Part shown: one piece after another, positions 62,129-63,616 of the stretch
Layout of the letters: each line of letters begins with the position of its first letter
Position numbering within the stretch: the first letter of the stretch is position 1
From: Escherichia coli
GTDB lineage: Bacteria; Pseudomonadota; Gammaproteobacteria; Enterobacterales; Enterobacteriaceae
Strand: one strand, 5' to 3'
DNA length: 64,000 nt
NCBI RefSeq assembly: GCF_024700885.2
Contig: NZ_CP117016.1
Translations under genes and position numbers: made by a program
Notes under the pieces: generated by a model
Told to the model about the DNA's origin: nothing
Seen by the model: only the letters and a program-made list of their open reading frames with translations
Database searches by the model: none

Positions 62129-62369
62129 TATCTGAAAAATAATTCTTTAAAATACCGGATATGTAATACAGAAAAAACACAAAACCATACCTTAAATAAA
62201 AACCTGATTATCAAGCAGATATGCATAGATAAACTACAAGACGAGATATAAACCACCCTGCATTTAAATAAACAACATCAGAAAAATAATTCTGCGCTAT
62301 GGTTTACATTCAAAAATATCATTTATACTTTTCAGAACATCACCAGCAAGGCATAAACAAGGAAGCTAA

Positions 62370-62705
62370 ATGAAGTGGATTGTGATTGATACAGTTATCC
62401 AGCCATCATGCGGAATATCTTTTTCAGTCATATGGAGTAAAGTAAAATTAATAATCTGGTATCAATCGGATGCTTTCTTACCTCCTGAAAGTATATTTAC
62501 ACTGACTCACACAGGTATCATGCTCAATAACAAAGTGCTACCTGTAACCATTTACAACGTAGTACCATTCAATAAAACATTCTGGAATTTAATCAAAAAC
62601 AGCCAGGAATGCCCTACAAATACAGATAACGTATTGAATGAATGCTTTAATAACCGTTGCACTCTGCAAATATGTCCTTATGGACTAAAACAACAAAGTC
62701 CATAA
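62370..62705 (+). CDS. Hypothetical Cys-rich small protein (AT-rich cargo)
   Basis: 111-aa ORF with AAGGAAG ribosome-binding site 5 nt upstream; six Cys residues, four of them in the C-terminal 40 residues; no family recognised. Confidence 0.5.
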
Positions 62706-62720
62706 GGAGTTTACTCACAT

Positions 62721-62761
62721 CTGACAAAATCAATATAAACAGCCCCTCCGGAGAGGGGCTG
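62721..62761 (-). terminator. Hairpin terminator (strong on the minus strand, possibly bidirectional)
   Basis: Stem CAGCCCCTC / GAGGGGCTG with 4-nt loop; on the minus strand followed by TTTATATTGATTTTG. Confidence 0.55.
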
Positions 62762-63152
62762 GAGAGTGGCGCTATGTGCCATTGCATGGTGCCGGGTGCC
62801 TCCCGGTGAATTCAGTACCAGCACCTGAATCCGCGATTATCCCATATACCTACTCGCTGATTGCCCCTCCGCACAGGGGGATTCACCATGCCAGTTTCTT
62901 TTAACAAACTCCCCGCAAACCAGACAACAGTCAACCGCCTGAATTGTGAAGTATTTAAAAATTTCTCCCGCTAACTGATACCCGGCTAACAGTCTGGCGT
63001 TTTCTTTTTCAGCAACGGGAAAGCAACAACCACCACACCCGCCACCAGCACACCGTCAGCCAGCACTGACATTATCCGGCTGCTGCAATGCCATTCACAA
63101 AAACAGTAAGCAATCACTTTTTACCGTAACAGGTGATAATCCAGATATGTAT

Positions 63153-63506
63153 CTACCCCAGATGAGTAATCCGAAGTTCATCCATACCACAGGTCCTGGC
63201 TATTCTGTTGTACTCCTGAACAAGAGCAAATAATTCTGAATTAGCAACCATGAACTCATCGCAAACCCTCTGTATAGCATCACTATTCAGAAGAATAACG
63301 TCTCTTCCCGAAAGACGATCAGGAGTACAGAACAAAACTGTCAAACGGCTGAAGGCCTTTGCTCGTGCTGCATTGACTATATCAATACGCTGCCTAAGGA
63401 TGAAACACCCCGACGCCTCATCAATATTCACTCTACCCACACCATATGAATGATAAATATTTAATACTGAAAAAACCATTAGACCGTATAACAAACACTC
63501 AATCAA
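63153..63506 (-). CDS. Hypothetical protein (AT-rich cargo)
   Basis: 117-aa track ORF from a TTG start (ATG at about 63479 would give 108 aa); no family recognised. Confidence 0.35.
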   Translation of the reverse strand: MIECLLYGLMVFSVLNIYHSYGVGRVNIDEASGCFILRQRIDIVNAARAKAFSRLTVLFCTPDRLSGRDVILLNSDAIQRVCDEFMVANSELFALVQEYNRIARTCGMDELRITHLG

Positions 63507-63616
63507 TACTTAACAGAACTTTTATTTTTGACAAACATATAATATTTTCAACAATATCCTGAGCCAGGTATATTCCAGTATAAGGCTCTGCCGGAAGGAA
63601 TCTGGAAGAATGAATA

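Follow-up and report, generated by a model that had tools for sequence, protein, structure and literature searches.

The late-operon cargo slot of an Escherichia coli lambdoid prophage carries the RssB anti-adaptor gene iraL

Introduction

What does a lambdoid prophage of Escherichia coli carry between its tRNA genes and its holin gene? The question is raised by one end of a 64,000-nucleotide (nt) stretch of contig NZ_CP117016.1 (assembly GCF_024700885.2), called the window below, in which about 1.5 kb of DNA (positions 62129 to 63616, the block) follows the phage tRNAs. An initial annotation, made from the sequence alone, described the block as strongly AT-rich cargo with a Cys-rich 111-amino-acid (aa) open reading frame (ORF), a 108- to 117-aa ORF and a possible 28-aa hydrophobic peptide, and could assign none of them to a family. 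We report that the 111-aa ORF is, by its sequence, iraL, the gene of an anti-adaptor that acts on RssB. The block is very probably (a probability of roughly 0.9) a region of mosaic cargo, or morons, within the late operon of a lambdoid prophage, with iraL as its working gene.

RssB is the adaptor that passes RpoS to the ClpXP protease, and IraL of the uropathogenic strain CFT073 raises the level and stability of RpoS in logarithmic growth, an effect shown by immunoblot (PMC4045071). CFT073 IraL interacts with RssB in two-hybrid and copurification experiments, in a mode distinct from those of IraD, IraM, and IraP, and its gene is transcribed during logarithmic growth from its own sigma-70-type promoter (PMC4045071). 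Later studies in CFT073 found that a shift to 37 °C raises iraL mRNA 1.6 log2-fold and that a fur mutant has higher IraL levels. For the paralogue IraM, the N-terminal domain, from residue 1, is a folded beta-barrel that was crystallised bound to cytoplasmic RssB, while the C-terminal tail is conserved less well, is flexible and is not needed for the complex to form (PMC10844676).

Results

As described initially, the 111-aa ORF runs counter to the late operon and possesses a good ribosome-binding site, the Shine-Dalgarno motif AAGGAAG standing 6 to 7 nt ahead of its ATG. It can, however, be assigned. The protein scores 161.4 bits against the NCBIfam model NF007393 (anti-adapter protein IraM), for which the curated cutoff is 121, with residues 1 to 110 covering profile positions 1 to 113 of 114, and it is identical to CFT073 IraL at 110 of 111 positions, the one difference (V24 here, I24 in CFT073) being conservative. 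The IraM domain that binds RssB has been crystallised (PDB 8twd, 8twd_A), and residues 1 to 78 align to it with an E value of 8e-32. Of the residues with which IraM contacts RssB, the protein retains C14, F18, W30, I61, and Y62; three replacements are conservative (T13S, L75I, and I64V), and H63N differs. RefSeq uses the name "anti-adapter protein IraM" in the 100%-identical record and likewise in all listed records with the block. On this sequence evidence the ORF is iraL, and the principal element of the cargo block is an already characterised gene in an already described context.

The surrounding DNA tells the same story. Positions 60174 to 63917 of the window are collinear with the potB prophage of CFT073, at 94.8% identity over 3.75 kb, and CFT073 iraL (c1429) has the same neighbours on both sides: tRNAs, an unannotated ORF, DUF3927, iraL, DUF1737, holin, YdfR, and lysozyme. 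The two loci differ in that one tRNA-Arg has decayed here and that the interval from Q to the tRNAs contains no IS200 here. The relationship to K-12 IraM (b1160) is more distant. The two proteins belong to the same family and length class, share most of the RssB-contact residues and are 62% identical in a gapless alignment over 107 aa, but DNA similarity to K-12 is limited to the coding region (62368 to 62689, 70.6%) and the promoter regions are unrelated, so the regulation of iraL here probably differs from that of K-12 iraM.

Upstream of the gene, the sequence again follows CFT073. The 5' end of CFT073 iraL mRNA, as mapped by RACE (rapid amplification of cDNA ends; ACATCACCAGCAAGGCATAAACAAGGAAACCA), has a single match in the window, at 62337 to 62368 with 2 mismatches in 32 nt, and the transcription start site falls at 62337. 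We read TATACT at 62324 to 62329 as the putative -10 element and either TTTACA at 62303 to 62308 or GGTTTA at 62301 to 62306 as the -35 element. Of the 141 nt upstream of the ATG, 126 agree with CFT073, with no change in the -35/-10 stretch. The earlier proposal that this gene is expressed from its own promoter thus gains support, as the sequence of the mapped iraL promoter is present and the gene opposes late transcription. That similarity to K-12 is confined to the coding region, while the upstream DNA matches iraL, agrees with the fact that iraM and iraL are regulated differently. As a single conservative residue differs and the mapped promoter is kept, we infer with high confidence that this protein has the same function as CFT073 IraL.

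At a threshold of at least 90% identity, iraL with its promoter is found in 1,445 of 5,426 complete E. coli genomes. The block itself, at 80% coverage, is present in 862 E. coli genomes versus no record in the whole phage collection. Comparison with lambdoid phages and prophages bears out the initial view of a variable cargo slot, since the gene sets between Q or the tRNAs and the holin differ. JLK-2012 has tciA, tciB, STnc100, and the yjhS esterase there, whereas mEp460_ev081 has the 117-aa ORF, truncated tciB, and STnc100 and then, where iraL would stand, a pair of unrelated genes of 429 and 396 nt, one of which was deposited as "TolA protein." In vB_EcoS-640R1 a different tRNA-proximal part precedes iraL, and in other assemblies the slot holds a methyltransferase, an AraC-like regulator, a homologue of the 92-aa product of the 117-aa ORF (ORF92), a TerB-like gene, and DUF3927. 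The prophage is located next to tRNA-Ser/mtfA in the identical genome and at potB in CFT073. As the cassette is integrated at different chromosomal sites, it moves with recombining lambdoid late regions.

The position of the block between phage tRNAs and holin was described correctly: ARAGORN finds the tRNAs above it and RefSeq annotates a class II holin below (Table 1). The prophage's late operon is encoded by the minus strand, in the downstream order terminator, CAU tRNA, tRNA-Arg(UCU), block, DUF1737 ORF, class II holin, YdfR-family gene, lysozyme, and Rz. In the 100%-identical RefSeq record, from E. coli MLI114, the Q antiterminator gene lies just past the window end, and the intrinsic terminator downstream of it may be the tR'-type terminator of the late promoter. 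The block has a GC content of 39.5% overall versus 50.6% for the window. Its description as strongly AT-rich holds for the left (62129 to 62730, 32% GC) and right (63118 to 63616, 39%) segments but not for the middle one (62731 to 63117), which at 52% GC has normal, flank-like composition.

Table 1. Features of the cargo slot and its borders, by position in the window
Feature	Coordinates	Strand	Basis
iraL, 111-aa RssB anti-adaptor, IraM paralogue	62370-62705	+	NCBIfam NF007393; identity to CFT073 IraL
iraL promoter and 33-nt 5' untranslated region	62237-62369	+	RACE-mapped CFT073 5' end
STnc100-family small RNA gene, late-operon orientation	62731-62920	-	Rfam RF02076
5'-truncated DUF3927/TciB small membrane-protein gene, 43-aa ORF	62986-63117	-	phrog_1470, partial match
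Probable small conserved gene (117-aa ORF), first after the tRNAs	63153-63506	-	phrog_2873
Phage tRNA-Arg, anticodon UCU	63617-63693	-	ARAGORN; Rfam tRNA, 68 bits
Decayed middle tRNA-Arg	63694-63799	-	Alignment to the intact CFT073 tRNA-Ile/tRNA-Arg/tRNA-Arg array
Phage tRNA, CAU anticodon	63800-63875	-	ARAGORN: Met; RefSeq: tRNA-Ile
Intrinsic terminator downstream of the Q gene	63919-63938	-	Terminator scan
66-aa DUF1737 ORF	61928-62128	-	phrog_2036, full length; phrog_143, positions 1-58 of 634
Class II holin, lower border of the cargo slot	61405-61620	-	RefSeq annotation of the identical record; holin PHROGs

Phages that convert their hosts to Shiga toxin (Stx) production carry Stx or NanS-p esterase cargo in this slot, which follows Q, the late terminator, and rare-codon tRNAs and lies upstream of the holin, and the STnc100 element and DUF1737 module that accompany such cargo are also present here. 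In Stx-type phages the DUF1737 domain stands at the head of the esterase gene. This locus differs in having neither toxin genes nor the esterase body, of which only the 66-aa DUF1737 part is left; RefSeq calls it a partial gene, with the remark "missing C-terminus."

The remaining elements of the block are on the late-operon strand. A 43-aa ORF annotated as "DUF3927 family protein" matches the TciB-like family phrog_1470 over residues 12 to 40 only, corresponding to profile positions 23 to 51 of 54. Full-length relatives have 50 to 54 aa and two hydrophobic segments, an architecture that the 43-aa ORF lacks, 11 unrelated residues replacing the first segment. While a TerB-like gene (tciA) directly precedes DUF3927 (tciB) in JLK-2012 and several other prophages, no TerB-like gene is found in the 35 nt between the 43-aa ORF and the ORF upstream of it. 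As DNA similarity to JLK-2012 ends at 63085, inside the ORF, its first segment is replaced, and only 35 nt lie upstream, a deletion took tciA together with the 5' end of tciB; the same junction is common to CFT073 and phage mEp460_ev081. Set against the TciA/TciB pair of JLK-2012 and other lambdoid prophages, the C-terminal 32 residues show homology (alignment identity to TciB, 67%), and JLK-2012 has the STnc100 DNA downstream of it as well (93.7%), whereas tciA and about the first 20 codons of tciB, including the first hydrophobic segment, are missing here. Judged from these alignments, the annotated protein is a truncated remnant, which is a minor new point. The 28-aa hydrophobic peptide noted initially (62986 to 63072) does exist as an open frame but is actually the C-terminal part of this ORF. 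A literature search for TciA/TciB returned only papers on Trypanosoma genotypes and nothing on phage genes.

The frame of 108 to 117 aa proposed in the initial annotation is indeed open, and three starts can be considered: TTG at 63506 (117 aa), ATG at 63479 (108 aa), and GTG at 63431 (92 aa), the last being used by distant homologues. It was said to belong to no family, but it matches an unnamed PHROG, phrog_2873, with an E value of 1.8e-69, residues 10 to 117 covering all 108 profile positions. Both CFT073 and the isolated phage mEp460_ev081 carry an undamaged copy of the ORF. In a homologue of 56% identity, taken from another E. coli prophage, the frame is uninterrupted and all indels are in frame, and the ratio of nonsynonymous to synonymous substitution rates (dN/dS) between the two is 0.32 for the whole ORF and 0.26 for codons 26 to 117, compared with 0.9 to 1.2 in shifted frames, which contain 7 to 15 stops. 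An exhaustive search found relatives of 91 to 95 aa at 31 to 40% identity, and in these distant prophages the position of the gene is unchanged: Q and other cargo precede it, and TerB-like, DUF3927, and holin genes follow it directly. Because these homologues begin at about residue 26 of the query, the conserved protein, as far as alignment can tell, is probably that of about 92 aa from the GTG at 63431. A membrane anchor in the first 25 codons was considered and rejected as unproven; this part has a dN/dS of 0.56, is less hydrophobic in the 56% homologue and is absent from the distant ones.

AlphaFold, run with the family alignment, predicts for ORF92 a helical hairpin, in which a short beta-turn connects two long helices that run antiparallel (predicted local distance difference test score [pLDDT], 88). 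A Foldseek search of the model against PDB returned only generic antiparallel coiled-coil hairpins (the EmrA hairpin, prefoldin beta, and BAR domains; best E value, 0.07), a sequence-profile search of PDB with the family gave a chance-level match (E = 0.64), and neither the 117-aa ORF nor the family alignment matches Pfam. In NCBIfam, only IraL is matched among the block proteins. None of the 20 RefSeq records sampled across the ranking of the 1,186 matching E. coli genomes (of the 5,426 complete ones) annotates the 117-aa ORF, and no convincing Shine-Dalgarno sequence precedes any of the three candidate starts. Taken together, it is probably a real small gene.

Homologues of ORF92 occur in other surroundings as well. 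Elsewhere among E. coli prophages, a gene for a 241- to 242-aa AraC-family (HTH_18) regulator has the homologue directly downstream, a cargo variant of the same slot, and in one of these prophages a DNA methyltransferase gene stands ahead of that regulator. A 33%-identical homologue is located outside any recognisable prophage late region, beside a fimbrial operon of the chaperone-usher type that includes a PapB-type regulator.

Between the truncated ORF and iraL lies a full-length STnc100-family small RNA (sRNA) gene, which the initial annotation overlooked. It scores 132.4 bits against RF02076 (gathering score, 47; E = 7e-29) over model positions 1 to 206 of 206, and the published STnc_100 quantitative PCR primers (PMC12370729) match exactly at 62871 to 62890 and 62798 to 62817. 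An intrinsic terminator, a hairpin with a T-tract at 62740 to 62761, is located 35 nt past the iraL stop codon, so that the two genes stand tail to tail. As the fold of the whole RNA is no more stable than that of shuffled sequences (z = -1.5), the assignment rests on the covariance model and not on folding energy. The STnc100 family is prophage-borne, and its members are transcribed in EDL933, with Northern blotting confirming one copy (PMC5331693); it was found in vesicles of Shiga toxin-producing E. coli, and Stx2 phages have a copy 75 nt downstream of stx2 (PMC12370729). A 2026 preprint links STnc100 to the PasD sRNAs. The match described here is full length and conforms to the STnc100/PasD structure in a typical site, between late-region cargo and esterase/holin genes, but this copy comes after truncated tciB and faces iraL, whereas the Stx2-phage copy is downstream of stx2. 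In the identical record, RefSeq places a pseudogene ("partial hypothetical protein," 62776 to 62901, plus strand) wholly inside STnc100 on the opposite strand; this is probably an artefact of protein-evidence annotation.

Several features lie beyond the block. In the tRNA array, the ends of the acceptor, D-arm, and T-arm of the decayed tRNA-Arg still align with the CFT073 gene, while its anticodon region is unrelated sequence with an 11-base G run (a C run on the plus strand); neither ARAGORN nor RefSeq calls a tRNA there. Between holin and lysozyme, a 90-aa ORF (60818 to 61090, plus strand; phrog_2411; a RefSeq hypothetical protein) is antisense to the 3' end of the minus-strand YdfR-family gene (61056 to 61400). 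A second AT-rich island (58100 to 59150, 31 to 43% GC) directly beyond the lysis genes carries two plus-strand genes that oppose the late operon, a YlcI/YnfO-family ORF (58408 to 58641) and a gene for a DUF1398 protein (58683 to 59108), whose family PHROGs labels "head protein," a label that looks doubtful. K-12 iraM adjoins the DUF1398 gene ycgX, so both paralogues, iraM and iraL, stand beside a DUF1398 gene of a type found near phage lysis genes. The chromosomal sRNA genes DsrA and RseX are also in the window (14233 to 14319, minus strand, and 22655 to 22744, plus strand; about 48 and 40 kb from iraL, respectively). Their presence indicates that the left part of the window is core chromosome, with the prophage inserted nearby. 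DsrA is an activator of rpoS translation.

Discussion

From the layout of the locus, a working model can be outlined. In the lysogen, iraL would be on from its own promoter in logarithmic phase, and IraL would bind RssB and thereby stabilise RpoS, so that the general stress response of the lysogen stays raised. In the lytic phase, late transcripts modified by Q and coming from beyond 63940 would pass through the cargo elements, antisense over iraL, to the holin. A more elaborate version makes the block a toggle between lysogeny and lysis, in which iraL raises RpoS in the lysogen and, after induction, antiterminated transcripts pass the STnc100 terminator, silence iraL and express ORF92/117 as a late host-modifying factor of a new family; this we consider doubtful.

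Some observations weigh against reading the block as cargo with iraL at work in it. RssB binding, RpoS stabilisation, and transcription would all be carried over from CFT073. The DNA upstream of iraL differs from CFT073 at four single bases, of which one directly precedes the transcription start site and two fall within the Shine-Dalgarno region, and an indel of 7 bp is located further upstream. A consensus promoter scan, which was not used as evidence, did not list the mapped iraL promoter; for STnc100, no clear sigma-70 promoter was found either by eye or by the scan. Finally, ORF92/117 and the truncated DUF3927 ORF have no assigned function.

How do other explanations of the block compare? 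Since RefSeq and NCBIfam label the 111-aa protein IraM, and 62% of its aligned residues are those of IraM, one might take it for the orthologue of K-12 IraM, induced by Mg2+ starvation, and not for the log-phase IraL. Its identity to IraL is 99%, however, its upstream DNA matches the mapped iraL promoter and shares nothing with the iraM promoter region, and its genomic context is that of CFT073 iraL and not that of K-12, all of which makes orthology to IraM very unlikely indeed. The initial annotation, counting six Cys, suggested a secreted or disulfide-stabilised effector, toxin or inhibitor. The protein has five (at 14, 81, 92, 97, and 102), four of them within the last 31 residues, the C-terminal tail, and AT-rich DNA in the slot used by Stx toxins would suit such a role. 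Yet the IraM/IraL family is defined by binding cytoplasmic RssB, and in IraM residues 1 to 78, N terminus included, form the RssB-binding barrel, and therefore no cleaved signal peptide is expected, while the region corresponding to the Cys-bearing tail is less conserved and flexible (PMC10844676). CFT073 IraL, moreover, works intracellularly, on RpoS stability (PMC4045071). The word inhibitor is apt only as an inhibitor of RssB, and the chance of a secreted effector or toxin is close to negligible.

A compact anti-phage defence or superinfection-exclusion module, also proposed initially, would be in keeping with the defence or exclusion genes that prophage moron slots often carry, with the PHROGs label "inhibition of cell division or resistance to colicin" for the TerB-like and DUF3927 pair in the slot of other phages, and with an ORF92/117 of no known function. 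PADLOC, however, matches no family to any of the three block proteins at E values of 0.01 or below, the locus has lost the TerB-like gene by deletion and its DUF3927 gene lacks the first hydrophobic segment, and the main gene, iraL, has another role, demonstrated in CFT073; a defence module is accordingly very unlikely. More room is left for the objection that the 117-aa ORF is no gene but merely an open frame in AT-rich noncoding leader DNA and is for this reason passed over by RefSeq. The sampled records without annotation, the lack of a convincing Shine-Dalgarno sequence and the match to nothing but a PHROG are in its favour. It would have to explain why a homologue with 56% aa identity still has no stop in the frame and only in-frame indels, why dN/dS is far lower than in the shifted frames, why homologues at 31 to 40% identity have the same length and the same site upstream of TerB-like, DUF3927, and holin genes, and why AlphaFold predicts a confident model of ORF92. 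We regard this objection as unlikely to be right.

We therefore return to a mosaic cargo region with iraL as its working gene. The small conserved gene left out of RefSeq annotation adds minor new material. The iraL cassette occupies the slot that elsewhere holds Shiga toxin, and those who described IraL tied raised RpoS to niche and host specificity in uropathogens (PMC4045071). With iraL as a known lysogenic-conversion gene, about a quarter of sequenced E. coli strains would keep RpoS high in growth through iraL.

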